A DNA stretch of 64,000 nucleotides, taken from assembly GCA_021814165.1 (NCBI GenBank), contig JAKAIX010000001.1:150787-214786 (forward strand), given 5' to 3'. This document shows positions 5,423-44,000 of the stretch, piece by piece. Each line of letters starts with the position of its first letter. Position 1 is the first letter of the stretch. A model generated the notes under the pieces. That model saw only the letters and a list, made by a program, of their open reading frames with translations. It made no database searches and was not told the DNA's origin. A program made the position numbers and the translations under genes. This DNA comes from a bacterium. Its GTDB lineage: Bacteria > Patescibacteriota > Minisyncoccia > UBA6257 > GWB1-50-10.

Positions 5423-5429
5423 CTTGTCT

Positions 5430-28101: not shown

Positions 28102-28104
28102 GTC

Positions 28105-28245: not shown

Positions 28246-28344
28246 GTTTGTATACGCAAACACTCCCCCGTTTCGGTTCACTGGGGGGTGAGTATAAGAG
28301 AAAGATACTCCTCGCTTCTTGTGAGGTCAAGATTGTTTGATTCG

Positions 28345-28740
28345 AGTTGAGGAATGATCTTCCTCTTTCATCGGCAAGTGTACGAACCGTTCCCCTCTCT
28401 CACAAGAGCCTCCGGATGCGAACACGCGTATTCGCTCGCACGCTCCTCGCCACCCTGCACGCCTATTCGGCGAGGGGCCTGGCTCGGCAACGCGGCTCGC
28501 TCATACATGTTCGCGCATCCTTCGGCAAATGTTCGTTCGGGGAACAGTTCATGCGCTCTCAAAAACAACCCCAGAGAGATAACTTTTTCTCCTCTCGGTG
28601 AAGCATCGTGGAGCGAGATTAACGCCTTCCCGAACGAGACAAAAGAAATGAGGGAATCGCGCACTGTACGAATCCCGAAGCGAAGCGGAGGTTGAGTTGC
28701 GCGAACCCTCAATTTCCGCATGGCGAGTGAGGAGAAGGCG
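28345..28740 (-). ncRNA. Copy A of a ~400-nt conserved element (candidate structured RNA of unknown family); sense strand not determined
   Basis: Reverse complement aligns with 42598-42990. Flanks and several internal blocks are near-identical; the middle diverges with indels not in multiples of 3. The terminal long-range helix differs in sequence but pairing is preserved (GTTCCCC/GGGGAAC here). Confidence 0.55.
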
Positions 28741-28792
28741 TATCGAGCGGAACGTTTTGCTGAACGAGAGGAGAAAAAGTTATCTCGAAATC

Positions 28793-29152
28793 TTACTTCC
28801 CGGGTCTTCTCTTTCTTCGCGCCCGCTTCGAGTACTTCTCTACCGTCTTTTCTTTGTGCTTTTGGATATCCTTCTTCGCTTTGTCTTTTGCTATTTCCAC
28901 CGCCGCAAGGAGATCGCTGTTTTCTTCCTCCGCTCGTATCTTCTTTCCTGGGAGATTAATATCTACCGAGGCGTGATAAATTTCACCATGGCGATGATGC
29001 TCCGTCGTACGTTCAATCTCAACTTCCGCATTCACGCTGTCGTTCTTATCAAACCGCTTAAGAAAACGTCCGAGCGCACCGACTTTCTTCCGCACATACT
29101 CCTTAAGTGCGGGGGAGAGATTCACCCGCACACTTTTGATATTGATACGCAT
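28793..29152 (-). CDS. hpf: Ribosome hibernation promoting factor / RaiA family
   Basis: MRINIKSVRVNLSPALKEYVRKKVGALGRF...EIERTTEHHRHGEIYHASVDINLPGKKIRAEEE. Confidence 0.85.
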   Translation of the reverse strand: MRINIKSVRVNLSPALKEYVRKKVGALGRFLKRFDKNDSVNAEVEIERTTEHHRHGEIYHASVDINLPGKKIRAEEENSDLLAAVEIAKDKAKKDIQKHKEKTVEKYSKRARRKRRPGK

Positions 29153-29159
29153 ACGGATA

Positions 29160-31193
29160 TTATACCGCCCGCTTCTTTTTCGGAGTACTTGACTGTTTTC
29201 CGATTTTCCCTTGAAGCAGCCTCAATTCGTCCCGTAAAATGGCGGCAAGCTCGAAATCAAGCGCTTCTGCGGCTTTTTTCATCTCCCGTTCTTTTTCCCG
29301 TACAAGTCTCTCGATGTTTGTTCTTGACTTGGGGATAACCTTCGTTTCGAGCGCAAGAATCTCATCCGCGGGAAGGATATCTTTAATTTCTTTTTCGATG
29401 GTTCTTGGCGTGATTTTATGCGCCTTATTGTACGCGAGTTGGAGCGCTCTCCGCCGCTCGGTTTCCGCAACCGCCCGTTTGATGGACCCGGTAATCGAGT
29501 CCGCATAAAGCAATACTTCTCCACGCACGTTCCTTGCCGCACGCCCTATCGTTTGGATCAAAGATGTCTCACTTCTCAAAAATCCTTCCTTATCGGCGTC
29601 GAGTATTGCAACAAGCGACACCTCAGGAAGATCAAGTCCTTCCCTTAAAAGATTCACCCCGACAAGAACGTCGAAGCCGCCTTTTGCAGATCCTCTTCGA
29701 AGATTCGTGAGAATTTTGATGCGATCGAGCGTCTTTACGTCGCTATGAAGATACGAAACACTTACCTTAAGTTCTTCAAGGTATCCGCTTAAATCTTCCG
29801 CCATCTTTTTCGTAAGCGTCGTGACGAGTACGCGTTCCTTCGCTTCCGCCCGCTCGCGGATGCGCGGAATAAGATCATCGATCTGCCCCCGTGCCGGCCT
29901 GATAGTGACCTTCGGATCTATAAGTCCCGTAGGCCTGATAATTTGTTCCACAATCTGCGAACTTTTCTTTTTTTCAAACTCTCCCGGCGTCGCGGAGGTA
30001 TAAACGGTCTGATTCGTCCGTTCCTCGAACTCCTTGAATTTCAAAGGACGATTATCCGCCGCCGAAGGGAGTCGGAATCCATATTCGATGAGGGTTCGCT
30101 TGCGCGACGCATCGCCCTCGTACATTCCCTGAATCTGCGAAACGGTCACGTGCGACTCGTCGATGATGGTTAGAAAATCCTTCGGGAAGTAATCGAGAAG
30201 CGTCGCCGGCGGTTCTCCCTTCTTTCTTCCGGAAAGATGAAGCGAGTAGTTTTCGATGCCGTTGCAATATCCGACCTCGCGTATCATCGCCATGTCCGCT
30301 TTCGTTCTCCGTTCGATGCGCTCCGCTTCCAGAAACTTTTTCTCTTTCTCGAATATCTTGAGTTGTTCCTTAAGCTCTGTTCGAATCGCCTTTAGGGCGT
30401 GTTCCCTGTCTTCGACGGGCGTGATGAAGTGTTTCGCGGGTGCGATGTAAATCTCCGGCAGTTCGGGTGTTTTTCCTGCCTGCGCAGGCAGACCCGGATG
30501 AAATCCTTCCACCGGATTTACCTCAAAGATGTTTTGAATGACATCATTCTTCGTTTCGAATACGTAGAGTATCTCCCTGTCGGGCGGCATGATTTCCCAA
30601 TGATCCCCCCGGAGACGAAATGATCCCCTCTTCAAATCGGAGTTTGTCCTTGTAAACTGAAGTTCGACGAGTTTCCGGGCGAATTCCTGCCTTGAAACCT
30701 TATCCCCCGGCCTCAAGTGAAAGATATTCTCGGCATACGCCTCCGGACTGCCGAGACCGTAGATACAGGAAACGGAAGCGACCACGATTACATCCTTTCT
30801 CGTAAGAAGCGCGGCGGTTGCCGCATGGCGGAGTTTGTCGATCTCGTCGTTTACCATTGCTTCCTTCCCGATGTAGGTATCGCTCGAAGGAATATACGCC
30901 TCCGGCTGATAGTAGTCGTAGTAGGATACGAAATAATTTACCGAATTATGCGGAAACAGTTCGCGAAATTCGTTACAAAGCTGTGCGGCGAGCGTCTTGT
31001 TGTGCGCAATGACAAGCGTCGGCTTTCCGACGTTCTGTATCATATTCGCCATTGTGAACGTCTTCCCCGACCCCGTGACGCCCAAGAGCGTCTGATCGCG
31101 GTACTTGTTCCGAATCCCTTCGGTAAGCGCCTCGATCGCTTTTGGCTGATCTCCCGCAGGTTTGTTTTTTGAAATAAGTTCGAATGTTTTCAT
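29160..31193 (-). CDS. uvrB: Excinuclease ABC subunit B
   Basis: GVTGSGKTFTMANMI Walker A, helicase motifs and C-terminal UVR domain (AAILRDELRLLQ). Confidence 0.9.
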   Translation of the reverse strand: MKTFELISKNKPAGDQPKAIEALTEGIRNKYRDQTLLGVTGSGKTFTMANMIQNVGKPTLVIAHNKTLAAQLCNEFRELFPHNSVNYFVSYYDYYQPEAYIPSSDTYIGKEAMVNDEIDKLRHAATAALLTRKDVIVVASVSCIYGLGSPEAYAENIFHLRPGDKVSRQEFARKLVELQFTRTNSDLKRGSFRLRGDHWEIMPPDREILYVFETKNDVIQNIFEVNPVEGFHPGLPAQAGKTPELPEIYIAPAKHFITPVEDREHALKAIRTELKEQLKIFEKEKKFLEAERIERRTKADMAMIREVGYCNGIENYSLHLSGRKKGEPPATLLDYFPKDFLTIIDESHVTVSQIQGMYEGDASRKRTLIEYGFRLPSAADNRPLKFKEFEERTNQTVYTSATPGEFEKKKSSQIVEQIIRPTGLIDPKVTIRPARGQIDDLIPRIRERAEAKERVLVTTLTKKMAEDLSGYLEELKVSVSYLHSDVKTLDRIKILTNLRRGSAKGGFDVLVGVNLLREGLDLPEVSLVAILDADKEGFLRSETSLIQTIGRAARNVRGEVLLYADSITGSIKRAVAETERRRALQLAYNKAHKITPRTIEKEIKDILPADEILALETKVIPKSRTNIERLVREKEREMKKAAEALDFELAAILRDELRLLQGKIGKQSSTPKKKRAV

Positions 31194-31270
31194 ACGCGAA
31201 ATACACTTCCTACTCGGATAAAGGGAGTGTTATGAGCAACTTTACGCGCAGGGCACAAGAGCGTCAAGTA

Positions 31271-32770
31271 CTACTTCAGATAATAAGGGAGTTTTTCCAA
31301 ATCTATTACGTCCCCGTACCTCTGCTGTATTTGTTTGATTTGTCCTTTCATATCCTCCAGGAGCCGCGCGGCTTTCTCTTCAAACACCGAATACCCGCGT
31401 ATTGTCTTATAATTTTCCAGTTGCTCGCTAAGAACTCGCCCCTCGATGACCGCCTCTCCAAAAAGTTTATCTGTCTTCTTAACTTTTCCTTTCGCCATAC
31501 TGAAGATCTTTTCGCGAAGATCATTCTTTATAAACCTGGGCACTTCTCCATTGCCCGGTTCCATCAGTATTGTACGCACTGATACGCGATCGTTTTCCTT
31601 TTCTCCTTTCTCCGATCTCAAAAATTGCGCCACGCGCACGCGTGCATCGATCTTCGCGCGCTCGGCAGCTTCATGATTTGCAATCGCTTCTTCCACTTCT
31701 TTCTTATCCTTACCAGATCTTCTCATTTGCTCGGCAAACGTTCTCGTCAGTATCTTTACCGCTATGTCACGCGTAGTTTTGTAACTTTCTTCGAGAAGAT
31801 TGTTCTTAATGTCTATCTTAAGTTTTCCTCCTTCCCTCTCCTTGTTCCCCTTCACAAGAAAAGCGGCGGTATGGTTAAAATATTCAAGTTCCCGCTTATC
31901 TTCCTCCGCGAGATGCGGAAAAGAATCCATATCCGTGAAATCAACGGAGAGTTTTCCATTCCCTTCATGATGCGCACTGAGACCAGTTCCGTGCAGCATC
32001 TCCGCAAAATCTTCAGCGACGACGGCCTCCTGTTCCGACAACTTCGCCAAATCTCCGACATTAAGAGATATTAATTCTTTTTGCCCTTCCTGCAGCCAGA
32101 AGAATTTATCTTTCTCGCCAGAATTTTCTCCGATTTCTTGTTGCCCATCCGGCACTTCATAAGGAACTACGCTGTCCCCGCTTCTTATCAATTCCTCCCC
32201 TGTCTGTTTTGTCTGTTCTTTTTTATTTGCGGTCTTCTCCGAAGCCGCGGATGCCGCACTTTCGTTCTTCTTCTCCGACATCTTGATTTTTTTCTTTAAG
32301 TCGATGCTTTCCTTCCGATTCTGTAACTCGATCGTTATTCTTGTATATTTCTCGAGTTCTTTCTGCACTTTTTCATTCTTTGGAAACTGAAGGTGGAATT
32401 TATTTAATTCGTCGGTTTTATCGGTGTAGTATCCGACGGGATCTTGCATTAACTTTTGGAACTTCGCCTTATAATTTTCGAAATAAGTAGAACCCGGGTT
32501 GGCTTGCGCGGATTCGAGTACGCTCTGTAGATTACGCAGTTCTTTCAGAGCGTCCTCTTTTGTCTCTTCACTTAGGAACCCATACAATAGAATGTCTTCC
32601 GGAGGATATTCTTGCGTTTCCGATTCAATCTCGACCGGTTCTCCATTCTCCGGTTCTTCCTTTATATCGACAAACTTTGCTTCTTCTATTTCGTTGGAAG
32701 AAATCCGTTCCTCCGGTTTTCGTCCCTCCACATCTCCCGTTAGTTCCGGTTCAAATAATTTTTCCGTCAT
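31271..32770 (-). CDS. Hypothetical acidic coiled-coil-rich protein (499 aa)
   Basis: Long ORF with strong coding bias; no motif recognised. Confidence 0.5.
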   Translation of the reverse strand: MTEKLFEPELTGDVEGRKPEERISSNEIEEAKFVDIKEEPENGEPVEIESETQEYPPEDILLYGFLSEETKEDALKELRNLQSVLESAQANPGSTYFENYKAKFQKLMQDPVGYYTDKTDELNKFHLQFPKNEKVQKELEKYTRITIELQNRKESIDLKKKIKMSEKKNESAASAASEKTANKKEQTKQTGEELIRSGDSVVPYEVPDGQQEIGENSGEKDKFFWLQEGQKELISLNVGDLAKLSEQEAVVAEDFAEMLHGTGLSAHHEGNGKLSVDFTDMDSFPHLAEEDKRELEYFNHTAAFLVKGNKEREGGKLKIDIKNNLLEESYKTTRDIAVKILTRTFAEQMRRSGKDKKEVEEAIANHEAAERAKIDARVRVAQFLRSEKGEKENDRVSVRTILMEPGNGEVPRFIKNDLREKIFSMAKGKVKKTDKLFGEAVIEGRVLSEQLENYKTIRGYSVFEEKAARLLEDMKGQIKQIQQRYGDVIDLEKLPYYLK

Positions 32771-32937
32771 AATTATTTCTTTATTATAGCAAGTTATGTA
32801 GCTTTAATTTCGAAATAATAATACCACAAAAGCAGAAAAAAAGCAAGTGTTACTTTTTCCCTGTTTTCCGAAGATAAGTTGGTGCGGGTAAGGAGAATTT
32901 TGTGCTTTGCCCCGCAGAATTTCTGCGAGTTACCTTG

Positions 32938-33008
32938 TGCGGGTAAGGAGAATCGAACTCCTGTCTCAACCTTGGGAAGGTCGCATTCTACCACTAAACC
33001 ATACCCGC
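32938..33008 (-). tRNA. tRNA-Gly (anticodon CCC)
   Basis: Manual fold of GCGGGTATGGTTTAGTGGTAGAATGCGACCTTCCCAAGGTTGAGACAGGAGTTCGATTCTCCTTACCCGCA. Anticodon stem CGACC/GGTTG with loop TTCCCAA. Confidence 0.75.
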
Positions 33009-33015
33009 GTTCTTG

Positions 33016-33327
33016 TTAATTCTTCGTTGAAGTACTTATCGGCGAACTGGAAGCGCTCGAAGAAGCACCGGGAACGACAATGATCACCCGTTCTCCTTCT
33101 TCGCGATACGTCGTTTGTTTCTTCAACTCCTTCAAAAGATTAACAGGATTTCCGTAGTAATCAATATCGCTCTTCAGTCTTGTGTTCTCCGCCTCAAGAT
33201 TCCCGAGTTTTTGCTCGAGATCATTCCTTTGTTGTTCCATATCCTTCTTGGATCCTTCCAGACTGACAAGCCCCCAAGAAAGGAGCGCGATTACAAGAAC
33301 GAGAATGATAATCTTCCAGGGTTTCAT
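33016..33327 (-). CDS. Septum formation initiator (FtsB/DivIC-like)
   Basis: N-terminal TM, coiled coil (QQRNDLEQKLGNLEAENTRLKSDIDYY) and Ser-rich tail. Confidence 0.5.
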   Translation of the reverse strand: MKPWKIIILVLVIALLSWGLVSLEGSKKDMEQQRNDLEQKLGNLEAENTRLKSDIDYYGNPVNLLKELKKQTTYREEGERVIIVVPGASSSASSSPISTSTKN

Positions 33328-33360
33328 TTATTCCTATTATAGTCCACCACGCTCAATACG

Positions 33361-33398
33361 AGGAGGCCCGGCTTCCTATCGGAGGCCGGGCCTCCAGT
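33361..33398. terminator. GGAGGCCCGGC / GGAGGCCGGGCCTCC hairpin (family member)
   Basis: Lies between the ftsB-like start region and the lepA 3' end. Confidence 0.45.
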
Positions 33399-33404
33399 CA
33401 TCGC

Positions 33405-35228
33405 TTATTTTTTCAAAAGTTCCTTGAAGAGATGCGGAGGGATGCGAACGTGGGCGCGCGCCTTGAGCCGTTCTTTTCCTTTCTTTTGTTTCTGCCACAA
33501 CTTCATTTTCCTCGTCCTGTCACCCCCGTTTTTCCCGAAGTTTCCCAATTCCTTTCTCATTGCGGGAATGTCCTCCCGTGCGATAATTTTCGCTCCCACC
33601 TTTGCCTGTATCGGCTGGGGAAATTGCTGCTGCGGAAGCGTTTTCTTAAGCCGCTCCACAAGCTGGCGGGCTTCGTACTGCACCGTCTCCTTCGGGAAAA
33701 ACCGCGAGAGGCCCGGAATAAGCTCTCCCGCAACCGCAACATCCACCCTCTCGATATCCGCTTTTCTGTAATCGGCGAGTTCGTAGCTGAATGAAGCATA
33801 GCCGGCAGTCGCCGACTTCAACTGGTCGTCAAAGTCGCTTACGAGCTCCGCAAGAGGCATTTTCGCCTTGATTTCCGTCTGGTTCTGGAATGTTTCGGTC
33901 GTACTTTCCATGAACCTGAATCGCTTTTGAAGCGGATAAATATTATTCAGAAACTCCGGAGAAGTGAGAATTACGATCTGTACCATCGGTTCCATAATTT
34001 CCTCATGCTCCTCGGGAAGTTCCTCGGGCTTCACAATCGTCTGCCAGCCCTTCTTTGTCTTCACTTTATAAAGCACCGAGGGAAAGGTGCTCACCGTTCT
34101 CACCTTGAACTCGCGTCTCAAACGTTCCGCGGTAATCTCAAAATGAAGATGCCCAAGAAATCCCACCTTGAATCCCCTGCCCAGAACTTCGTTCTGATCG
34201 GGTTCAATCGAAAGCGACGAATCATTAAGTCTCAGTTTATCAAAACTCCGCTTCAGGAGATCGTAGTCGTCATTATTCTCGGGATAAAATGAAACGAACA
34301 CTACCGGTTGCGGTTCGCGATAGCCGTGGAGCGCGAGCGGTCTTGGATTTTGAACCTTAAATTTCGAACTTATCGCCGTATCCCCGATTTTCACGAGCGC
34401 GATGTCCTTGATGCCCGTCGCGATATAACCGATCTCCCCCGCATTCAAAGTTTCGGTCGGCGTAAGCGCCGGCGCGAAACAACCGATTTCTTTTATTTTC
34501 GAGGAGGCGCCGGATGCGGCAAGAGTAACCGTATCCGTCGATTGTATGATTCCTCCGAAAACGCGGACCGAGGCGATAACGCCCTTGTGATCGTCATAAA
34601 AAGAATCAAAGATGAGCGCTCGCGCCGGCGTTTCTCTTCCTTGTATCCCGCTCTGTGCTGTTTCCCCCGGAGGAGGCACGCGACGGACTACCGCTTCCAG
34701 AAGTTCCCTCGTTCCTTTCCCCGTTTTCGCAGACACCATGAGTACTTCCTCTTTCCCGGCATTGAGAAGTTCCGCAACTTCGCCTCGGACACGATCAAGC
34801 CCTTCTTCGTCGCCGTTCCCTTCGAGTACGTCGATTTTATTCACCGCGCCGACAACGGTAAGTCCGGCCTTTCTCGCCGAATGCAGGTTCGCGAGCGTTT
34901 GTGCCTGTATTCCTTGTGTCGCATCGACGAGAAGAATCCCTCCCTCAACTGCCGCAAGCGCACGTGATACCTCATAGGAAAAATCGGAATGTCCCGGAGT
35001 ATCAATCAGGTTCAGTTCATACCGTTCTTGTCCGAGTTCATAACGCATCCTCACGGGAGCCATCTTAATGGTAATCCCGCGTTCGCGCTCGAGTTCGAGT
35101 TGATCGAGATACTGTTCGTGCATCCGTCTCGTATCCACCGCGCCGGTGATTTCAAGAAACCGATCGGCAAGCGTGGACTTCCCGTGGTCAATGTGCGCGA
35201 TAATACAAAAATTCCTTATATGCTCCAT
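33405..35228 (-). CDS. lepA: Elongation factor 4
   Basis: MEHIRNFCIIAHIDHGKSTLADRFLE G-domain plus LepA C-terminal domain. Confidence 0.9.
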   Translation of the reverse strand: MEHIRNFCIIAHIDHGKSTLADRFLEITGAVDTRRMHEQYLDQLELERERGITIKMAPVRMRYELGQERYELNLIDTPGHSDFSYEVSRALAAVEGGILLVDATQGIQAQTLANLHSARKAGLTVVGAVNKIDVLEGNGDEEGLDRVRGEVAELLNAGKEEVLMVSAKTGKGTRELLEAVVRRVPPPGETAQSGIQGRETPARALIFDSFYDDHKGVIASVRVFGGIIQSTDTVTLAASGASSKIKEIGCFAPALTPTETLNAGEIGYIATGIKDIALVKIGDTAISSKFKVQNPRPLALHGYREPQPVVFVSFYPENNDDYDLLKRSFDKLRLNDSSLSIEPDQNEVLGRGFKVGFLGHLHFEITAERLRREFKVRTVSTFPSVLYKVKTKKGWQTIVKPEELPEEHEEIMEPMVQIVILTSPEFLNNIYPLQKRFRFMESTTETFQNQTEIKAKMPLAELVSDFDDQLKSATAGYASFSYELADYRKADIERVDVAVAGELIPGLSRFFPKETVQYEARQLVERLKKTLPQQQFPQPIQAKVGAKIIAREDIPAMRKELGNFGKNGGDRTRKMKLWQKQKKGKERLKARAHVRIPPHLFKELLKK

Positions 35229-37339
35229 TATTCGTTCGGAGATCCCAATCTTAGCGTGAGCGTAATTACGGTACGCGCATCGGGATCGTCGTTGTTATAC
35301 GCGAATACCCTATCGTTCGACTCCGCCCAATAATATTGGAAAGGAGCGTTTATAACAAGATGAAGCGAGTTCTTAACCCCGGACTGCCGTTCGAAGATGA
35401 ACGTATATGTCTGTCCGGAAGCAAGAGAGGGAAGGTTCGCATACTGCGTTTGGTACCTCATATGCAACGTCTTCGAGCTTCCCGAGGGTAGCATAAACCA
35501 TGTCGCAAAAACGTTTTTACCCGAATCCTGTCTTTGCCATGCCTTATAATTCGTAAGATACACGTCGTTCTGTTCTATTGCCGCAAGATCGGCATTTACC
35601 GCGTAATTGGTGTGCGCATAATCAAGCGTGGAATAACTCGTCTTTGTATCATTTCCATCAAGGGCGACCAGGGTCGCATTCGGCTCGGTGAAAATCTGGA
35701 TAAAATCCTTGTTCGTAGCGCGCCACCACGGATCTTTCTGAGTGTCTCCCAAATGCGTCCGCGTAATATCCGCGTTCGTAAACGTATTGCCGCTCACGTC
35801 GATGTCGACGTTCGCGCGCACATCTTCCGTTACGAATGCATCGCTCTTTCCCCCCGCGATGTTCGCGTTCACTACGCCAAGATAACTCCCCCAAAAACTC
35901 GAAGGAAGACCGAATATCGAACCGTCCAGATCGTTCGTTGCGAGGAAATCGGAGAGCACCGGATCTTTTGCGTAGAGCATAATATCTTTCTTCTGTATCG
36001 CATCTTTAATCGCCTCGAAGAGCGACTTCCGTTCGCTATCTGAAAGATTGTTAAGCCGTTCGAGAAGAAGGGGGGTAATGATTTTAAGTATCCGCTTCGG
36101 CTCCCCCGCTTTTTTATCATCGCCTGATTCCACCTCACGTTGAATCTCGGAAAGGAAATTCGCGCTGGTGATGACCTTGTTGTATTCCGGAATGGGAATG
36201 GGACCCGTGATATTTAAAAACGATTCCAGAACACGGATGTTGAGCGCGATAGCGGCATCGAACGTCACATCGCGTTCCGAGTACATTTTCGACGCTTCAA
36301 GGAAATTTACGATCGTCTTTGCGGAAGTCGGGAAATTGAAAAACCAATTCGCGTCGCGGGCGCCCCATCGTTCCGTGAGCGTTTGAAGCTGCTTCGGAGG
36401 AACCACTTTTTGGTCAAGCTGCCCATCGGGATCGTAGATATCCCGTACGTCCATATTCGTCATCTGTCCTCCCGAAACGGTAAGGTCGGCATAACTCCCC
36501 ACGAACCCTCCGCCCGGACGTATCTCCGAAGGATTTTGGAAAAGAAGAAGAACATGGTGATCCCCGGGTGCGCCGAGCCACTTCACGAGAGCGACAAGCG
36601 CATTATCCCATCCATAGAGCGCCGCGCTATATTTCAGGTACTCTCCTCCAATCGCATCATCCACGGTGTTGAATGCGGAAGAGAGATTCTTAAGCGCCGA
36701 GGAAGCGTTTTTGATGGAAACGGTGTTGTCGCGTATCGCCTGAATCGTCTCGTGCGTTTTCGAGAGCGCGGCAATGAGAGCGGCGCCGTCATGCTGGAAG
36801 TAACCGAGCGCGTTCGTCTGGAGCGTTTCGAGATCCTGGCTCAATTCAAGGAACTGGAGATTCAGGTTCGTCACTTTCCCCAAAAAACCCACGCTCCCTT
36901 TCACGATAGGAACGAAACTGCCGACCGTATCGATAATAGACTGACCGATGCCTTTATGAAGCGTCGAAGTAATGGTATTCAGTTCTTCGTCGTTCTTTTT
37001 GAGAAATTCGGACGCGGTCTGCGGTTCGAAATTTTTGAGTGCGGTCGCCGAAGAAGTGAAATTCTTCATAATCGACGACCCGCTGTCGGTAATGGTGGCC
37101 TTGATAGTCCGCAGATTACTCGCAACAAGAAGCAGAAAGAGAATTATGCCGAGGAGTATCATACCGAATGCACCCACCAAGGCGCGCTTCAGGACCGAAA
37201 ATCGCGGCCGAGACGCCTCGGGAACGCGCCTCAAGTTTACCGTACCGAATCTGTTCAGCCGCTCGTAGTTGAAATGGGGATTTCTTACGTCGACAAGGAT
37301 CGGATCGATATTCTTTTTTGGCACCGATTTTTTTACCAT
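35228..37339 (-). CDS. DUF4012-like large envelope protein (N-terminal TM, 703 aa)
   Basis: N-terminal basic region, then TM (GMILLGIILFLLLVASNL), then a long extracytoplasmic domain. It precedes the glycosyltransferases. Confidence 0.5.
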   Translation of the reverse strand: MVKKSVPKKNIDPILVDVRNPHFNYERLNRFGTVNLRRVPEASRPRFSVLKRALVGAFGMILLGIILFLLLVASNLRTIKATITDSGSSIMKNFTSSATALKNFEPQTASEFLKKNDEELNTITSTLHKGIGQSIIDTVGSFVPIVKGSVGFLGKVTNLNLQFLELSQDLETLQTNALGYFQHDGAALIAALSKTHETIQAIRDNTVSIKNASSALKNLSSAFNTVDDAIGGEYLKYSAALYGWDNALVALVKWLGAPGDHHVLLLFQNPSEIRPGGGFVGSYADLTVSGGQMTNMDVRDIYDPDGQLDQKVVPPKQLQTLTERWGARDANWFFNFPTSAKTIVNFLEASKMYSERDVTFDAAIALNIRVLESFLNITGPIPIPEYNKVITSANFLSEIQREVESGDDKKAGEPKRILKIITPLLLERLNNLSDSERKSLFEAIKDAIQKKDIMLYAKDPVLSDFLATNDLDGSIFGLPSSFWGSYLGVVNANIAGGKSDAFVTEDVRANVDIDVSGNTFTNADITRTHLGDTQKDPWWRATNKDFIQIFTEPNATLVALDGNDTKTSYSTLDYAHTNYAVNADLAAIEQNDVYLTNYKAWQRQDSGKNVFATWFMLPSGSSKTLHMRYQTQYANLPSLASGQTYTFIFERQSGVKNSLHLVINAPFQYYWAESNDRVFAYNNDDPDARTVITLTLRLGSPNE

Positions 37340-37352
37340 ACCGTTTACATTT

Positions 37353-38501
37353 TTACATATTCCGCGCTACGGAAGCGAAACAGTGCATATGCTCCGCGGC
37401 GCTTGTGCGCCAATCGAAACGGGCAATATTATCTTTCCCCCGCTTCTTGAACGTCTCGCAAAGCGCGGGGTTGTCGAGAAACGCTTCGATCGCCTCAATA
37501 AGCTCGCGTACCTTCCAAGGATCCGCGAGAAGCGCGCTCGTACCGAGTATTTCGGGAAGCGAAGTGCGGTTTGATGCGACGACGGGAGTGCCGCACGCCT
37601 GCGCTTCGAGAGGGGGAAATCCAACCCCCTCGAAAAACGAAGGATATACGAACACCGTCGCAAGACGGTACAAACGCCGCATCACTTCGTGCTCCGCCTT
37701 TCCCCACACGATAATGTCCTCCCGGTACGGCGAATGTTCCACCTCTTTGAAAATTGTATCATAGGACCATCCGCGCGACCCCGCGAGCACGAGAGAAAGC
37801 TCCTTGTTTCTCGATGCTTGTTTGAGCGCGTTAAACGCACGCACGACCGCGACGATATTTTTTCTCGGCTCGATCGTTCCCGAATAAAGAAGGAACCGAT
37901 CGGGAAGCTTATGCTTATTTTTAAAGACCCGAAGCGCTTCGTCGGTATCCTTCTGCTCTTTATATATCACATTGATTCCCGGATAGATCCTCGTAATCTT
38001 CCGTTCCGGAATTTTGAATACATCCATAAGCGTTTCCTTCGTGAAATTGGAAGGAGCGATGAGATGTCCCGCTTCACCTATCTCGCGGCGGTATCCCTGC
38101 CGCCAATGCCACAACCGCTGCTTTACGGAAAAAAATTCCGGATAGCAGAAAGATATATCATGAACCGTCACCACGCGCCGCTCGGGATTCTTTAAGGAAA
38201 GAATGTTGATGTTCGGACTCCAAAACACATCGGAAGGGAGAAGTGCATCTATTTTTGGAATGCGGAATAAGAGATTTAACGGATCGAATATCCTGTTCGG
38301 AATCCCGAAATTGATTACGGCGCCGTTAACCCCGTTTTGTAGGAACGGTATTCCCTTTTGTTTCCTGAAACCGTTCGCGAAAAACGTATAGTGATGCTCC
38401 GGATAATCGGCGATAAACCGTTCGATAAGAAGTCGCGTATATTCCGATATTCCGGAAAATGTATTCGGCCTATATGGCCTCGTATCGATGAAAATATTCA
38501 T
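37353..38501 (-). CDS. Glycosyltransferase family 4 (GT-B)
   Basis: EGVGFPPLEAQACGTPVVAS motif. Start set at MNIFIDT to avoid overlap with the upstream gene. Confidence 0.8.
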   Translation of the reverse strand: MNIFIDTRPYRPNTFSGISEYTRLLIERFIADYPEHHYTFFANGFRKQKGIPFLQNGVNGAVINFGIPNRIFDPLNLLFRIPKIDALLPSDVFWSPNINILSLKNPERRVVTVHDISFCYPEFFSVKQRLWHWRQGYRREIGEAGHLIAPSNFTKETLMDVFKIPERKITRIYPGINVIYKEQKDTDEALRVFKNKHKLPDRFLLYSGTIEPRKNIVAVVRAFNALKQASRNKELSLVLAGSRGWSYDTIFKEVEHSPYREDIIVWGKAEHEVMRRLYRLATVFVYPSFFEGVGFPPLEAQACGTPVVASNRTSLPEILGTSALLADPWKVRELIEAIEAFLDNPALCETFKKRGKDNIARFDWRTSAAEHMHCFASVARNM

Positions 38502-38514
38502 AGACGAATCGGCA

Positions 38515-39612
38515 TTAAAACGTGAAACCGTATTTTGCGAGTGTTGCAAGAATGCTTCCGCGAAACGTCTCTTTCGAGAACCGAAGCGCAGATCGCGCAA
38601 TTGCACGCCGATCGAAAGTGAGATATTCGAAACTCCGCACCGCCTCCACAATTTTCTCGGGTGTCTGCTCGGAAAAGAATACGCCGGTCTTCTTATCGAT
38701 AACTATCTCGCGGGCGCCTCCTTTTGCAAACGCGATAACGGGCGTTCCGCACGCCTGCGCTTCCGCGGCGACGAGCCCGAAATCCTCGATCTGCGGAAAT
38801 ATGAGCGCTTTCGCATTGCTATAAAGCATCCTGAGTTCTTCATCTCCCGCAGATTCGATAAATTCGATAAGCGGCGATTTTACGAGCTTCTTCAGCTCCG
38901 AGAGTTCCGGTCCTCTTCCTACGATCTTCAGTGGCTTCTGGAGCTGATTGAACGCCGCGATGCCGAGATCAAACCCTTTGTAATACAGAAGTCGTCCCGC
39001 CATAAGGTAGTATTCTTTTCTTCCCGACTGGAGTTCGGGATAAAAAAGTTCGGTGTCGACGGGAGGATATACCACGACCGCATCGCGGCCGTAGTATGAA
39101 TGAATTTTCCCCGCAATAAATTCGGAGTTTGCAATGAAAAGGTTCACGCGTTGCGCCGCGCGCGTATCCCAGTTCTTAAGCCATCGCGCGATCGGGTACG
39201 CGATAAGATTCGAGAGTGCCTTCGGAGAAAATCTGAGATTTTTCAGATAATCGATTTCCCACGCGTAACGAAGCGGGCTGTGGCAATAACTCACGTGATA
39301 AGGGGCGCGTATGCCGAATCCTTTGGCATATCCCGCAGTCGAGGAGATGAGCAGGTCATATTCCTGTTCCGATTTAAGAAGCGAAGCCGCAATCGGCATC
39401 AAAGGGATAAAGAGGCGATGATGCTTCTTAATCCCCGGCATGTTGAGAATACTCGTATGCAGCTTGTACCGTTCGAAGAGACCGCGGGTTTTTTCCTTGT
39501 CGTAGAGAAGCGTATAGAGATCGGCGTCGGGAAACATCTCGAGAAGCGCTTGAAGCACCCGTTCCCCTCCTCCGAACTGATTCAAATAATCATGTGCAAT
39601 CGCAACGCGCAT
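38515..39612 (-). CDS. Glycosyltransferase family 4 (GT-B)
   Basis: EDFGLVAAEAQACGTPVIAF motif. Confidence 0.8.
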   Translation of the reverse strand: MRVAIAHDYLNQFGGGERVLQALLEMFPDADLYTLLYDKEKTRGLFERYKLHTSILNMPGIKKHHRLFIPLMPIAASLLKSEQEYDLLISSTAGYAKGFGIRAPYHVSYCHSPLRYAWEIDYLKNLRFSPKALSNLIAYPIARWLKNWDTRAAQRVNLFIANSEFIAGKIHSYYGRDAVVVYPPVDTELFYPELQSGRKEYYLMAGRLLYYKGFDLGIAAFNQLQKPLKIVGRGPELSELKKLVKSPLIEFIESAGDEELRMLYSNAKALIFPQIEDFGLVAAEAQACGTPVIAFAKGGAREIVIDKKTGVFFSEQTPEKIVEAVRSFEYLTFDRRAIARSALRFSKETFRGSILATLAKYGFTF

Positions 39613-39723
39613 GTCGTCATTTTATCGTTAATCGCACATTCTTGGAAGCGGTTACGGAAGAGTTTGATTTCTTCGAATCGGACCACAATCGGATTATCGA
39701 ACTAAATGAAGCCGCCTCAAAAT

Positions 39724-39759
39724 ACGCTCATATGCGCGTATTTTGAGGCTGTCATCTTC
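39724..39759. terminator. Palindrome GCCTCAAAATACGCTCATATGCGCGTATTTTGAGGC (related copy at 4216-4255)
   Basis: Read directly; lies 3' of the carboxypeptidase gene. Confidence 0.5.
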
Positions 39760-39774
39760 TTCTTTTAGGGCGCG

Positions 39775-40686
39775 TCAAAACGTATACGCCTTTTCGATCC
39801 ACTCAAGCATGCCATTCGTTTCCTTCACGCGATCCGGACTCCCGAGAATAATGATCGCGATCTGTCTGTTTCTGAAAGAGAGCACCGCGGCGAAGTTTTC
39901 TTTCGCCAAGGGCGACGTACCCGTCTTTCCGCCAAGGAAATCGGCGCGGGTCGCGAGGAGATCGACGTTCGGCACGACATGGCTTCTTTCCGAATTCGTC
40001 GGTTGCACGAGAAGCGAGGTAAGCCGCGTCCATCGTAAAATGTCGGGATCCTTTGCGATGATGTATTTAAGAAGCATCAGCATGTCACGCGCCGTAGTCG
40101 TATTCGTGTCATTAAGTCCGGAAGAATCGTGGATGAAAGTTTCCGTCATGCCTATCTCTTTCTCTTTTTTATTCACCAGATCCAAGAAAGCGTCTTTTCC
40201 TACATATTCTTCAAGCGCTGCCGCCGCATCGTTCGAAGAGGCCATGAGCATGATTTTCAAAAGATCTTCGACGGTGTACACCTCACCGGCATGCAATCCC
40301 CCCGCAGTACCTTCCGTATCCACTGCGGCATTGGAAACGACTACTTTCTGATTCAATCCTCCGCGCTCCGTAATAAGAACGGCGGTCATGAGTTTCGTAA
40401 GCGAAGCCATTGGCCACGCGGTATCGGAGTTATAGCGAAAAAATGGAAAATTATCGTCCAAAGATTGCACGATGACAGCGCGCGCGTTTATTGCCGGGTC
40501 GGGAACGTCCCAATTACGCACCGGCACTTTTTCCGCTTTCGGAGGAATAGGAGTCGATCCCGTCGAAGTCGCAACGTTCATAATATTCGTTTCTCCCTCC
40601 GTCCTCCAAAAATTCAGGAGCGGGAGCTTCGAGAGCCCCACTGAGACAAGAATGATAGCAATGAGAAGTATGACCTGCCAACGCAT
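39775..40686 (-). CDS. D-alanyl-D-alanine carboxypeptidase (S11, PBP5-like)
   Basis: SLTK (SxxK), SSND (SxN) and KTGTS (KTG) motifs; N-terminal signal/TM. Confidence 0.8.
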   Translation of the reverse strand: MRWQVILLIAIILVSVGLSKLPLLNFWRTEGETNIMNVATSTGSTPIPPKAEKVPVRNWDVPDPAINARAVIVQSLDDNFPFFRYNSDTAWPMASLTKLMTAVLITERGGLNQKVVVSNAAVDTEGTAGGLHAGEVYTVEDLLKIMLMASSNDAAAALEEYVGKDAFLDLVNKKEKEIGMTETFIHDSSGLNDTNTTTARDMLMLLKYIIAKDPDILRWTRLTSLLVQPTNSERSHVVPNVDLLATRADFLGGKTGTSPLAKENFAAVLSFRNRQIAIIILGSPDRVKETNGMLEWIEKAYTF

Positions 40687-40692
40687 GAACGT

Positions 40693-41310
40693 TTACTCGG
40701 TTAAGGGAGATTCTGCGGAAGGCTGCTCCTGCGTCGTTTCGGATTCCTCTTGGGCGGCGGCGGTGACGCCGAACTCTTCGAGGATGCGGCGATAACGATC
40801 GTATTCCGGCAGCGCCCCCGGCGATTCAATCCCCATGTGACGCAGGAAATCGAAACTCGCGGAGTACTCGAAGACATTCTTTTTCCGCTCGTGCGGCGCG
40901 CGCGTCACGAGTCCGCGCATGAGCAAACTTCGGAGGATAAAACTCGAATTCACGCCGCGGATGAAGTCGATCGTCGACCTCGTAACCGGCCCGAGGTACG
41001 CGATGATGGAAAGCGTTTCGACGGCCGCAGGCGTAAGTTCCTCCTTGAACTCTTCTTGCGCCAGCGCCTCCCCGAATTTGTGAAATGGGGGCTTCGTGCC
41101 GAGTTGAAATACGTTCCCGTTCCGGAGCAAAAGCAATCCGCGGCGCTCATCCCTTCCCAGCACTTCTCCAAATTCTATGAGGAGTTCCTCCGCTGATTTT
41201 TCATCCATCCCCAAAAATTTTGCAACCCGTTTAAGCTCCATCGGTTCGCCGTAGTAGAAAAGAAGCGCCTCAAGCGCCGCATATTTTGCTTCATAACGTA
41301 ATGTCTCCAT
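40693..41310 (-). CDS. scpB: Segregation and condensation protein B
   Basis: LEALLFYYGEPMELKRVAKFLGMDE winged-helix pair. Confidence 0.8.
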   Translation of the reverse strand: METLRYEAKYAALEALLFYYGEPMELKRVAKFLGMDEKSAEELLIEFGEVLGRDERRGLLLLRNGNVFQLGTKPPFHKFGEALAQEEFKEELTPAAVETLSIIAYLGPVTRSTIDFIRGVNSSFILRSLLMRGLVTRAPHERKKNVFEYSASFDFLRHMGIESPGALPEYDRYRRILEEFGVTAAAQEESETTQEQPSAESPLTE

Positions 41311-41461
41311 AATAATGCCTATTGTACCTCCTCCTTGCGTCTACTTCAAAATCCTTCCGACCAGCCTGAAAATATTTCTCGAGGATTTTGCAAGATGGAA
41401 AAAGTGGGTAAGACTTGGCCAAGCGGCCCGGAGCGCACACTTCTTCTGTCTTGCAAAATCC

Positions 41462-42211
41462 TCATATTGAAGTCTGGTCCTTTTTCTTCCTTGCGATAAA
41501 GATATCCGAAAAATGACTACCCTGCTCCACCATGACAAGCTGTTCCTTCACGAGATGCAAAACCGCGAGAAAGAGCACGACAAGCTCGCTCCGTCCGCTT
41601 GATCCGCTCCCGAAACTCTTGAAATTCACCGGATGTTCCGTAAGACGCGCAAAAATTTCCTCGATCTTCTGCTTCAGATGGATAATCTCGTTCTTGACCC
41701 GCACGACAGGGCGCATGAAACGCTCGAGTTCTCCCACGACGCGCCGAACGGCGCTTACGAGATGCTCTTCCGAAAATTTTTTCGGCGGATAAAAAATGGG
41801 CGTGCGTTCCATAAGGAATGCGCGCGAAAAAATAGTCGGCACCGGATGCCATCCCGCCTTGATATATTCTCTCGTCTTTTTGAGTTCCTGATACAGTTTG
41901 AGACGCGTTTCAAGATTTTTTATATCGCTCTCCTCTTCCTCGGTAAGTTCGAGAGAAGGAAGAAGCGTTTTCGATTTAATGAGAAGGAGTTTTGAGGCGA
42001 CCACCAGAAAATCGGCCACAAGAGAGTGATTCGCGCCCGCGGCCTCGAGACGATGGAGATAATCAAAAAAGCCGCCCGTGACCTCGGCGAGACTCACGGT
42101 CGTAATCTCCAGTTTTTTCTCCTCGATGAGTTCAAGAAGCTTTTCGAGAGGCCCCTGGAACCCGGTCAGTTCAAGCTTATATGCCACATCACTATGATAT
42201 AATGAAACCAT
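41462..42211 (-). CDS. scpA: Segregation and condensation protein A
   Basis: ELTGFQGPLEKLLELIEEKKLEITTVSLAEVT. Start taken at MVSLY. Confidence 0.75.
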   Translation of the reverse strand: MVSLYHSDVAYKLELTGFQGPLEKLLELIEEKKLEITTVSLAEVTGGFFDYLHRLEAAGANHSLVADFLVVASKLLLIKSKTLLPSLELTEEEESDIKNLETRLKLYQELKKTREYIKAGWHPVPTIFSRAFLMERTPIFYPPKKFSEEHLVSAVRRVVGELERFMRPVVRVKNEIIHLKQKIEEIFARLTEHPVNFKSFGSGSSGRSELVVLFLAVLHLVKEQLVMVEQGSHFSDIFIARKKKDQTSI

Positions 42212-42575
42212 GATGAAAGGAACAACAAAACTCACCCCCGCGTTCGTGCTCCGCATCGGGCTCGGACTCACGCTCATTTACGCCGGTGCACACATTTTAG
42301 GAGACACGGTAACCTGGGCGGGATTTATTCCTCCGTGGCTCTACAAACTCATGAATCCGTCGCTCTTCCTCACAATCCACGGAATCGGCGAACTGCTTTT
42401 GGGAGTTCTTCTTCTTGCGGGGATTTTCCTTCCCGCGGCTTCCATCCTGACTTTCCTCGATATGCTCTCGATCATGATATTCTACGGCGTGGACGATATT
42501 TCTTTCCGCGACTTCGGCCTCATGATGGCGGCACTCGCGCTCTTTCTCCTCGTGAGAAAGAAGGAAACAGAGTAA
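42210..42575 (+). CDS. DoxX-like small membrane protein
   Basis: Four TM segments (RIGLGLTLIYAGAHIL...); divergent from scpA. Confidence 0.45.
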   Translation: MMKGTTKLTPAFVLRIGLGLTLIYAGAHILGDTVTWAGFIPPWLYKLMNPSLFLTIHGIGELLLGVLLLAGIFLPAASILTFLDMLSIMIFYGVDDISFRDFGLMMAALALFLLVRKKETE

Positions 42576-42597
42576 ATTTCTTTCCCCCTCCGTCAGC

Positions 42598-42990
42598 CAA
42601 CGTTCCGCTCGAATGTCTTCTCCTCACTCACCATGCGGAAATTGAGGGTTCGCGCAACTCAACCTCCGTCCGCCAACTGGCGGACTTCGGGATTCGTACA
42701 GTGCGCGATTCCCTCATTTCCTTTATCTCGTTCGGGAAGACATCTGTCTCGCTTCACGATGCTTCCTTAGGGGGAAAGAGATTTACTCTAACCTGTGAAG
42801 TTGCAAAACAAGAGTCTCACCAGAAGAGTCTTATTCTCCCCGAGTGAGCATTGTCGTAAGATATCGAGAAACTTACGAGCGAGCCGCGTCGCCGAGACAG
42901 GACCCCCGCCGTAAGGCGAGTCGGGTGGCGAGGAGCGTGCGAGCGAGTAGAAGTTTTTATATCTGGAGGCCCATGCGAACGAGGGGAGAA
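42598..42990 (+). ncRNA. Copy B of the ~400-nt conserved element (inverted relative to copy A); sense strand not determined
   Basis: See copy A. Here the internal 19-bp long-range helix is AAGAGTCTTATTCTCCCCG / CGAGGGGAGAATAAGACTCTT. It abuts the ychF stop codon. Confidence 0.55.
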
Positions 42991-43004
42991 TAAGACTCTT
43001 CCTT

Positions 43005-44000
43005 CTATCCATGTCTCACTACAATCACATCGCCGTCCTGCATCACGTACTCCTTCCCCTCGAGACGGAGCCACCCTTTCTGTTTTGCGTGACTCCATCC
43101 GCCCGCTTCGAGTAACTTTTCCGTACTTATCACCTCCGCGCGGATGAATTTTTGCTCGAAGTCCGTGTGAATCACACCCGCCGCCTGCGGCGCCTTCGTG
43201 CCGCGTTCGATCGTCCATGCGCGCGTCTCGTCTTCTCCCGTGGTGAAAAAACTGATGAGATTCAAGATCGCATACGCTTTCTTGATAAGCTCCGGCACTG
43301 CGGATTCATCCTTCAGATCCGCGATGAGATATTCGAATCCCATCTCGGCTATTTTTCGTTTTACATCCTCGCTCACCTCCTCGGGTGATCCGTTCAAAAG
43401 AAAAAGCTGCGGCTTCGCGCTTAAGAGCTGAAGCTCGTGCACGATCGGTTCGTCTTTAAAACGCCCCGTAAGATTTCCCGCCTCGAGTTCCGCGCGGATT
43501 TGTTTCAAGACGCCCAGGTTTTTGATAGCCGTCTTGTCGTTTCCCCGCGCCTCCGCTTCGAGTTTTCCCATCCGCTTATCCACGGTTTCGATATCCTTGA
43601 AGATGAGTTCCATTTCAATAATGTCGATATCGCGGATCGGATCCACCGTCGATTCGACGTGGATGATATCACCTTGTCCGAAACAGCGAACGATATGCGC
43701 GACCGCCTGTACGTTTCTGATGTTTGCAAGAAACTGGTTTCCCAATCCCTCGCCCTTATTCGCACCCTTCACGAGCCCCGCAATGTCGTAGAATTCCACG
43801 ACCGCCGGGATTTCCTTCTTCGAGCTCGAAAGTTTCGAGAGTTTCTGCACCCGCTCATCGGGCACGGACACGACGCCCACATTCGGATCAATCGTCGCGA
43901 AGGGATAGTTTGCGATCGTAATCTCCTGCTTCGTAAGCAATTTGAAGAGCGTTGACTTCCCTACGTTCGGGAGTCCCACAATACCGATGGATAATTTCAT
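43005..44000 (-). CDS. ychF: Ribosome-binding ATPase YchF
   Basis: MKLSIGIVGLPNVGKSTLF G1 motif, TGS domain at the C-terminus. Confidence 0.9.
   Translation of the reverse strand: MKLSIGIVGLPNVGKSTLFKLLTKQEITIANYPFATIDPNVGVVSVPDERVQKLSKLSSSKKEIPAVVEFYDIAGLVKGANKGEGLGNQFLANIRNVQAVAHIVRCFGQGDIIHVESTVDPIRDIDIIEMELIFKDIETVDKRMGKLEAEARGNDKTAIKNLGVLKQIRAELEAGNLTGRFKDEPIVHELQLLSAKPQLFLLNGSPEEVSEDVKRKIAEMGFEYLIADLKDESAVPELIKKAYAILNLISFFTTGEDETRAWTIERGTKAPQAAGVIHTDFEQKFIRAEVISTEKLLEAGGWSHAKQKGWLRLEGKEYVMQDGDVIVVRHG

Follow-up and report, generated by a model that had tools for sequence, protein, structure and literature searches.

Two doublets of an apparently undescribed family of structured hairpin repeats at gene ends in Patescibacteria

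Two folded copies at the ends of hpf, DoxX and ychF

The stretch of DNA analyzed here (the window) covers 64,000 nucleotides of contig JAKAIX010000001.1 (GenBank assembly GCA_021814165.1, positions 150,787 to 214,786 of the forward strand), from a bacterium of the Patescibacteriota. It contains two homologous, strongly folded elements, copy A (28341-28786, minus strand) and copy B (42569-43001, plus strand); coordinates are those of the window unless another locus, designated by an L number, is named. Along the minus strand, copy A comes after uvrB and hpf, on the same strand as hpf, and is separated from uvrA by a promoter-like site and then an AT-rich hairpin. Copy B is in the gap between the convergent genes DoxX (plus) and ychF (minus). 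The interpretation favored below, which is considered probable, is that copies A and B represent two doublets from a turnover-prone family of hairpin repeats, dispersed in Patescibacteria and sitting where terminators or other 3′-end hairpins sit.

A previous reading of the window, made from the sequence only, had described two inverted homologous copies of one element, and this was confirmed: the reverse complement of 28330-28800 aligned end to end with 42560-43010, with a mean column identity of 79%. The overall identity of the copies was 75-79%, with many indels; the conserved blocks measured 52 nt (98%), 81 nt (90%), 38 nt (87%) and 74 nt (77%), and the longest exact common run was 38 nt. 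A 23-mer and a 34-mer conserved between them occurred in the window at these two sites only, with zero occurrences expected (100 shuffles). Compared to shuffled controls, the folding z scores were -6.3 for copy A and -8.8 for copy B.

In each copy the fold consisted of two separate, long and imperfect hairpins, named d1 (first half) and d2 (second half). The helix closing d2 pairs 42823-42851 with 42973-43001 in copy B, and ATGAACTGTTCCCC with GGGGAACGGTTCGT in copy A. This is the closing helix that the sequence-only reading had seen to be kept by different sequences in the two copies, and the pairs were located in both of them. The helix closing d1 pairs 28576-28597 with 28765-28786 in copy A (22 bp, 100% paired) and 42569-42589 with 42769-42789 in copy B (21 bp, 95%). 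This second helix, around the first half, had been missed, so the element starts about 45 nt (copy A) or 30 nt (copy B) further 5′ than previously stated; the end-to-end alignment of the copies stands, with extended boundaries. On the other hand, the proposal of a single RNA of about 400 nt did not hold, since the halves lie on opposite strands as hairpin units independent of each other, and other genomes contain each of them alone.

Concerning coding capacity, an ATG-initiated frame is open for 117 aa in copy A, while in copy B a hairpin insertion of 11 nt shifts this frame, and an early stop follows. The open reading frames (ORFs) of 117, 113 and 170 aa within the elements gave no Pfam match. 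A hidden protein gene was ruled out on these grounds, in agreement with the earlier statement that no ORF is conserved. Public gene calls place ORFs of 117 and 101 aa inside units (28368-28721, minus strand, in the window; 1932-2285 of L073; 9676-9981 of L001); they are probably spurious, because they lack a Pfam match and their frame is not kept between copies. Among Logan contigs carrying an identical hpf (L074-L078), several short-read contigs from different runs stop about 100 nt past hpf, inside d1. The repeat appears to break assemblies, since the contig ends coincide with the start of the near-identical 52-nt block shared by copies A and B.

The features of both sites are summarized in Table 1. 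The strand with the purine-rich loops in copy A d1 is the plus strand, antisense to hpf, and 6 nt separate the end of its 3′ arm from the stop codon of hpf; copy A d2 is co-directional with hpf and uvrA. The orphan fragment next to it lies just upstream of the uvrA promoter, and L001 has an intact d1 whose 3′ end is homologous to this fragment. In copy B, the purine-loop strand of d1 is the minus strand, antisense to DoxX, with the DoxX stop codon (42573-42575) inside the outer arm, and d2 is antisense to ychF, with 3 nt between the end of its 3′ arm and the stop codon of ychF (43005-43007). It had been stated that the copies lie directly 3′ of hpf and ychF. This is correct as far as copy A follows hpf and copy B abuts ychF, but as copy B is flanked by convergent genes, it is 3′ of both DoxX (a membrane protein) and ychF, and not of ychF specifically.

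Table 1. Features of copies A and B and of the adjoining genes (window coordinates).
Feature	Position	Strand	Properties
Copy A, d1-type unit	28576..28786	+	22-bp perfect closing stem; plus strand folds 10 kcal/mol better; in alignment A6
Copy A, spacer between the adjacent 5′ ends of the units	28553..28575	.	From sequence; no promoter-like site in or beside it
Copy A, d2-type unit	28382..28552	-	Model R1, 170.4 bits, E 2e-36; 14-bp closing stem; minus strand folds 18 kcal/mol better
Orphan fragment, d1-type 3′ base module and arm (CTTGCCGATGAAAGAGGAAG...)	28341..28381	-	Alignment A2, columns 501-560
Copy B, d1-type unit	42569..42789	-	21-bp closing stem; minus strand folds 10 kcal/mol better; in alignment A6
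Copy B, spacer between the adjacent 5′ ends	42790..42822	.	From sequence; no promoter-like or terminator-like site
Copy B, d2-type unit	42823..43001	+	Model R1, 176.9 bits, E 8e-38; 19-bp perfect closing stem; plus strand folds 14 kcal/mol better
hpf (Ribosomal_S30AE), abutted by copy A	28793..29152	-	Pfam PF02482, E 2e-17
uvrA promoter-like site (TTGACC, 17 nt, TATCTT)	28302..28330	-	Directly after copy A; kept in relatives with other spacer content
DoxX-family gene, left of copy B	42210..42575	+	Pfam PF07681
ychF, right of copy B	43005..44045	-	Pfam PF06071 and PF01926

Architecture, covariation and strand of the units

The units measure about 210 nt (d1 type) or 175 nt (d2 type), within a family range of about 170-210 nt, and have a common architecture. 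Each unit is closed by an outermost stem of 13-25 bp, which is perfectly paired and has a sequence specific to the locus. Above the stem there is a common base module of symmetric purine mismatches (tandem G.A, then UGAA/UGAA and GGA/GGA), followed inwards by freely covarying middle helices and by an apex specific to the subfamily. The apex of d2, of about 70 nt, is near-invariant (GAGCGAGCCGCGUYGCCGAGCCAGGCCCC ... GGGUGGCGAGGAGCGUGCGAGCGA), an invariance partly built in by the motif searches, although neither its 5′ half nor two of the copies, which were reached through hpf and not through the motif, had been selected for it.

The pairing was analyzed in one alignment for each type of unit. 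In the d2 alignment (A4, 23 copies), 86.8% of the cells paired, compared to 30-53% with partners slid, and 42 of 62 pairs changed on both sides; none of 500 shuffles reached these values. In the d1 alignment (A6, 13 copies), the corresponding figures were 93.3%, 32-48% and 50 of 67 pairs, with 0 of 500 shuffles reaching the observed value for four of five measures and 5 of 500 for the remaining one, further pair types. The compensatory change that had been noticed in the window is thus found in both halves of the element. The units are conserved structured nucleic acids, either RNA or single-strand DNA hairpins. With three invariant G.U columns removed, the variable helices contained about 69 G.U against 56 A.C in d2, and 41 against 22 in d1. 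This excess of G.U over A.C is only modest, so selection at the level of RNA and at the level of single-strand DNA are not separable by these data.

The covariance model of d2 (R1) matched d1 units with E values between 1e-9 and 1e-6, never on the strand of the neighboring d2 but always on the other one; copy A d1, for instance, was matched on the plus strand only. The aligned d1 and d2 model hits have the base module in common, and it can be said, judging from these matches, that d1 and d2 are distant paralogues on opposite strands. In both types the strand bearing the purine loops was the one that folded better (22 of 23 d2 units and 13 of 13 d1 units), with a mean advantage of 11-13 kcal/mol under RNA parameters and of 3-4 kcal/mol under DNA parameters.

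When two units occurred together, they were divergent (left unit on the minus strand, right unit on the plus strand) in all the eleven doublets of the census and in the d1/d1 doublet of L079, which represent at least nine independent loci, while random orientation would give a divergent doublet in one case out of four. The 5′ ends of the two units were 18-76 nt apart. Independent divergent transcription from the spacer of the doublets was considered and rejected, the spacer being too short and devoid of promoter-like sites.

The closing stems behave differently from the rest of the unit, as the loci L014, L018 and L020 carry cores about 98% identical with unrelated closing stems. The possibility that the stems act as guides with nearby targets was rejected, because none of the four stems of the window has any other match in it.

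Census and distribution of the family

For the census of d2, a 22-base d2 motif was scanned in one genome per species. It was found at 22 loci in about ten metagenome-assembled genomes of Patescibacteria, with up to five loci per genome, and the scan of metagenomes with the same motif added 34 loci. Model R1 gave 44 matches at E < 1e-17. At most of the loci found with the motif d2 is a solo unit, and d1 also occurs alone elsewhere (L005). Smaller relatives, which combine the common base module with different interiors, were found in L021, L022, L049, L086 and L088.

Exact matches to the 22-mer in Thermoplasmata (L012, 7243-7265) and Oscillochloris (L015, 3179-3201) were discarded as chance, since they lie in GC-rich, coding-like DNA, form no hairpin and give no hit or a partial hit to the model. 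A 17-mer gave seven GC-rich chance matches. The 34-mer had no match in viral contigs, and blastn found none in phage and plasmid collections. An origin in phages or plasmids was rejected, given that viral contigs and phage and plasmid records contain no similar sequence.

The search of the whole window against Rfam 15 at gathering thresholds returned three tRNAs only. With both copies, permissive filters and E ≤ 10, the search produced only chance hits of 11-18 bits, compared to cut-offs of 45-53. The models that the sequence-only reading had proposed for comparison, namely raiA, OLE, GOLLD, ROOL, HEARO, group I and II introns, tmRNA and RNase P, gave no match even at that E value, and the same was true of 6S, self-cleaving ribozymes, TwoAYGGAY, T-box and SRP. 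Literature searches by topic and by sequence string did not find a description of these repeats in Patescibacteria. The suspicion of a previously uncharacterized structured family was therefore well founded as to the facts that the elements covary, are non-coding and are absent from Rfam, and what has been found is, apparently, an undescribed family of structured hairpin repeats in Patescibacteria.

Turnover at orthologous sites

Close relatives differ in the presence of units at four orthologous sites. Between uvrA and patatin, the window has a spacer of 35 nt without hairpin, while L001, whose uvrA protein is 95% identical, has an insertion of 581 nt with a doublet. Between divIC and lepA, 77 nt with a small GC hairpin in the window correspond to a doublet in L066. 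At the stop codon of a sugar transferase gene, L091 has 48 nt without hairpin and L090 has 67 nt, while L014, L086 and L088 contain three different units with three unrelated closing stems; these units start at the stop codon or at most 3 nt from it, and score better on the strand antisense to the gene. The fourth site, the DoxX-ychF spacer, contains d1/d2 in the window, d1/d1 in L079, an IS110-family transposase gene in L082, and no spacer in L085, where the genes overlap. In L079 (3403-3840; DoxX 89% identical) both units are of the d1 type, so that the right-hand unit is replaced at the same locus by one of a different subfamily. The family is turnover-prone DNA, with gain, loss and replacement of units at orthologous sites in close relatives, and the spot just past the stop codon has been occupied repeatedly.

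The insertion in L082 (3581-4816; also in L083 and L084; DoxX 66% identical) encodes a 411-aa IS110-family transposase (PF02371) and is flanked by ATCAGC-rich palindromic sequence. It gave no match to the d2 model, and a relation of the hairpin family to this insertion was rejected for that reason.

No target-site duplication was evident at two filled/empty junctions or in 34 pairs of flanks, the junctions being in low-complexity, T/C-rich sequence. It could be imagined that the closing stems were pre-existing terminator stems and that the core was inserted in their loop, an attractive idea in view of the plain long-stem palindromes found after genes in the window. It was rejected because the empty uvrA-patatin site has no hairpin, and because the three units at the sugar transferase site have unrelated stems, none of which is present in the empty alleles. 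The stems thus arrive with the unit, given that cores about 98% identical carry unrelated ones.

These results bear on the possibility that the units are selfish DNA, i.e., single-strand-DNA hairpin transposon ends of the kind of REPIN or IS200-IS605, with the purine loops as recognition sites of a transposase encoded elsewhere. This is a possible but rather doubtful explanation. The presence/absence and replacement of units at orthologous sites, the near-identical cores at different loci, and the obligate inverted doublets, as in REPINs, are all in its favor. The strand asymmetry also persists with DNA energy parameters (19 of 23 d2 and 13 of 13 d1 units), the small excess of G.U over A.C makes the pairing look nearly strand-symmetric, as DNA would give, and in a relative the DoxX-ychF spacer holds an IS110-family element. 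However, no transposase was found in the window, where the 50 larger ORFs were scanned, and none recurs within 3 kb of any copy. Neither conserved termini nor target duplications were seen, and the outer 13-25 bp differ between copies, which is the opposite of miniature inverted-repeat transposable elements (MITEs) and repetitive extragenic palindromic (REP) sequences; furthermore, the freely covarying middle helices point to selection on folding and not on sequence. On the same selfish account, the position and orientation with respect to stop codons would reflect tolerated or targeted insertion, with no function for the host, and this part seems equally doubtful.

The inverted arrangement of copies A and B had also raised the possibility that they flip the 14-kb segment between them (uvrB ... 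scpA, DoxX). The inverted orientation, the exact run of 38 nt and the 52-nt block at 98% identity would be enough for occasional homologous recombination, and a flip on a small scale does exist in the family: compared to 28341-28786 of the window, the whole hpf-uvrA doublet is in the opposite orientation in 6361-6900 of L001 (hpf 88% identical). The short sequences resembling d1 arms that border this doublet (window positions 28765-28786 and 28341-28381) have not changed orientation, which suggests an in-place inversion by recombination between inverted arm copies. No evidence of a flip of the 14-kb segment was found, and such a flip is considered very unlikely. The overall identity of the copies is only 75-79%, with many indels; the relative for which context is available keeps the order and orientation of the window at uvrA-[element]-hpf-uvrB and at divIC-lepA; scpB-scpA-DoxX-[spacer]-ychF is arranged in L079, L082 and L085 as in the window; and copies elsewhere do not form matched distant pairs.

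Position and orientation with respect to the abutting genes

Of the solo units having a stop codon no more than about 25 nt from their 3′ arm, about 13 of 15 were antisense to the gene in question. The cases checked with Pfam all agree with this (dnaE, a surface protein, a TraG-like gene, a sugar transferase and an M23 peptidase). The same is true of the three gene-abutting units of the window, where hpf faces d1 (plus), DoxX faces d1 (minus) and ychF faces d2 (plus). The gap between stop codon and outer arm was -8 to +9 nt in most of the abutting cases.

The composition of the flanks is also asymmetric. On the strand of the unit, the 10 nt located 5′ of it contain a mean of 4.2 A versus 2.1 T, while the 3′ flank is unbiased (3.0 T versus 3.0 A per 10 nt). 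An A-rich 5′ flank on the strand of the unit means a U-rich tract in the mRNA of the abutting gene, and reading in the direction of the gene one finds the stop codon, the long hairpin and the U-rich tract. For instance, L014 reads UGA, hairpin, UUUUUAGUUUUAUU, and copy A reads UAA, 6 nt, hairpin, UCUGGGGUUGUUUUU; in the direction of hpf the spacer of copy A is UCUGGGGUUGUUUUUGAGAGCGC, a U-rich tract after the first hairpin. The tract is clear in about half of the copies (e.g., L014, L010, L048 and L024) and weak in the rest. The promoter of the next gene is often found directly after the unit. A consensus scan for terminators called none at the copies of the window.

The antisense orientation could be interpreted in another way, each unit being the gene for a stable, rod-shaped small RNA transcribed from the purine-loop strand, convergent with the neighboring gene. 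Such an RNA might act as a protein sponge or scaffold, through its tandem G.A loops or a GGAGG resembling a Shine-Dalgarno sequence, or in cis, as an antisense RNA against the 3′ end of the neighboring gene's mRNA. The consistent orientation would suit the cis-antisense role. The purine-loop strand gives the more stable fold in 35 of the 36 units, the invariant G.U pairs and the near-invariant 70-nt apex are maintained across genera, and possible -10 boxes, TAAAAT or GAAAAT, are frequent in the A-rich 5′ flanks. Despite this, the small-RNA interpretation is judged improbable, since the 18-76 nt between the 5′ ends in doublets leave no room for two promoters and a consensus scan found no promoter-like site for any of the four units of the window. 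In addition, the unbiased flank past the 3′ arm has no terminator, so that the RNA would run into the neighboring gene, and the A-rich flank is equally well explained as the U-tract of the opposite strand.

Neighboring genes and the proposed link to translation

Besides hpf, DoxX and ychF, units of the family abut trmD and dnaE, as well as genes encoding a TraG-like ATPase, an M23 peptidase, a large surface protein and a sugar transferase. Two further neighborhoods, uvrA/patatin and divIC/lepA, were observed in the relative that L001 and L066 represent. The all-against-all comparison of flanking ORFs revealed no recurrent neighboring protein, other than orthologous neighbors. The region after hpf itself varies among the relatives reached through hpf homologues: L005 has only d1 there, L008 has d1 and a small unrelated hairpin, and L001 has the entire doublet in inverted orientation. 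The adjacency to hpf and ychF is probably incidental.

It had been suggested that the element is one large structured non-coding RNA of about 400 nt tied to genes for ribosome hibernation or translation factors, with the raiA motif as precedent. In four related assemblies, as in the window, copy A comes directly after hpf; copy B touches ychF, and the structure is real. Yet the halves are separate units on opposite strands, each found alone elsewhere, the relatives carry after hpf the different arrangements mentioned above, most copies abut genes unrelated to translation, and there is no Rfam match of any kind. The idea of a large RNA with such a link has to be considered scarcely credible, and neither the tie to hibernation and translation factors, the spacers of hpf and ychF being variable in relatives, nor the raiA precedent survived the analysis. 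The raiA motif is located upstream of raiA. The likeness to it is limited to being a structured non-coding element near a gene for a hibernation factor; the difference is that the present family is downstream of hpf, and 3′ of genes generally, is multi-copy, lies beside many unrelated genes, and gave no match to the raiA model even at E ≤ 10.

Interpretation

The interpretation as a dispersed and turnover-prone repeat family located at the position of terminators, which is considered probable, can be elaborated as follows. The family would spread as non-autonomous DNA, by transposition with the participation of some enzyme, by gene conversion between copies, or by both. Each unit is predicted to be transcribed as the 3′ end of the gene that it abuts. 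There, the hairpin and the U-tract would act as a terminator or as a hairpin protecting the 3′ end of the mRNA. The conserved loops would be recognized by a protein, either one that mobilizes the element or one that binds it.

Several observations weigh against this interpretation. The near-invariant 70-nt apex and the conserved purine loops are not required by a terminator, and in the mRNA the purine loops would be present as their less stable, pyrimidine version. A clear U-tract is found at only about half of the units, and none passes a canonical terminator scan. The second unit of a doublet located between co-directional genes, as copy A d2, is not accounted for by termination of the upstream gene. 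Concerning mobility, target-site duplication, conserved terminal repeat and mobilizing enzyme were not found, the 50 larger ORFs of the window being housekeeping or without Pfam match. The occurrence of unrelated stems on near-identical cores is explained only loosely, by gene conversion or by some insertion chemistry. Finally, the gene calls behind the count of orientations are crude, and only some of them were checked with Pfam.

A further proposal is that the family is a new kind of mobile structured element. Its insertion would possibly be coupled to termination, placing a self-folding rod at the stop codon in a fixed orientation, with a new perfect stem of 13-25 bp for each copy and with the near-invariant tandem-G.A core as a handle for a protein partner in Patescibacteria. 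This is a speculative proposal and is regarded as unlikely.

Other hairpins and palindromes of the window

The AT-rich hairpin between copy A and uvrA (about 125 nt, 28102-28231; arms 28108-28124 and 28215-28231, rich in CTAAA/TTTAG) ends at the uvrA start codon and folds with z = -4.2. The relatives L001 and L008 lack it, although their uvrA leader is conserved in other respects, so it is a separate insertion, single-copy in the window. Other long, near-perfect palindromes, with arms of 18-26 nt, occur at 4216-4255, 39714-39749, 53930-53968, 4842-4929 and 41381-41463. Several of them are located just past gene ends: 39714-39749 follows the stop codon of a carboxypeptidase gene, and 53930-53968 is a classic hairpin with a T-run. 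These plain palindromes look like long-stem terminators, and they gave no match to the model of the family. A region of about 2.2 kb without ORFs of at least 150 aa (3190-5430) contains hairpins or palindromes at 4078-4143, 4216-4255, 4510-4567 and 4842-4929; no Rfam match and no tandem array were found in it.

Significance and comparison with known systems

Patescibacteria have very small, tightly packed genomes, and that of one complete relative has about 0.8 Mb. In such genomes, the maintenance of several hundred bases of non-coding repeat at many gene ends calls for explanation. There are also practical consequences, as gene callers annotate spurious ORFs in the units, short-read assemblies appear to break inside them, and a doublet can be mistaken for one large RNA tied to its neighbor gene. 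The covariation, the near-invariant core, the divergent doublets and the fixed orientation at stop codons offer testable handles on transcript ends and on DNA mobility in Patescibacteria, and the d1 and d2 alignments are directly convertible to new RNA-family models.

Intrinsic terminators resemble the units in having a hairpin a few nt past the stop codon, placed between the stop codon and the next promoter; they have a U-rich tract after the hairpin, as do about half of the units. The units differ from them by the length of the hairpin (170-210 nt), by the conserved, subfamily-specific interior, and, in the other half of the copies, by the weakness or lack of the U-tract.

The IS110 elements with their bridge RNA have an adjacent gene for a DEDD/Transposase_20 protein, and in their structured RNA the stems are conserved while the loops vary. 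No such gene lies beside any of the units, in which the loops are conserved and the stems vary. In contrast to MITEs, the closing stems of the units are unrelated between copies even with cores about 98% identical, and conserved terminal inverted repeats are lacking.

The nearest behavioral parallel found is TwoAYGGAY RNA, a structured motif of Pseudomonadota with very variable copy number and an expansion like that of mobile elements, in which divergent doublets are significantly enriched (68%), with a median spacing of 249 bp, and the AYGGAY apical loops are thought to bind Csr/Rsm (bioRxiv 10.64898/2026.09.22.753630). Variable copy number and enriched divergent doublets are the common traits. 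On the other hand, TwoAYGGAY belongs to another phylum, differs in sequence and fold and is included in Rfam, while the spacing of the doublets in the present family is 18-76 nt.

Among the dispersed repeats of 100-200 bp that form hairpins and are co-transcribed with their neighbors are Correia (CREE/NEMIS, in Neisseria), ERIC/IRU, BOX and RUP. They have been reported as terminators, RNA-processing sites or mRNA stabilizers, and they have conserved terminal inverted repeats, with a TA target duplication in the case of Correia. The present family is similar to them as a set of dispersed hairpin-forming repeats; it differs in having variable termini and no visible duplication, and there is no sequence similarity. 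Neither a fixed antisense orientation nor obligate divergent doublets are known to be features of those repeats.

REPs are sequences of about 20-40 nt, and REPINs of about 100 nt, defined by a conserved sequence and paired with a RAYT transposase. REPINs have been described as REP doublets that form hairpins (Bertels and Rainey 2011, PMC3116915). The likeness to REP, BIME and REPIN is that all are multi-copy, extragenic and non-coding palindromes at gene ends, typically arranged in inverted doublets, which behave like mobile DNA of a non-autonomous kind and may be present in one relative and absent from another. As for the differences, the units described here measure 170-210 nt, and it is the internal purine loops and the apex that are conserved, not the outer stem. 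Moreover, each unit folds on itself, d1 and d2 of a doublet being too diverged to pair together. No RAYT (Y1/HUH) transposase was found among the 50 larger ORFs scanned in the window, which represents about 8% of a genome. On the best-supported reading, the family belongs in one broad class with REP/REPIN, Correia or ERIC elements.

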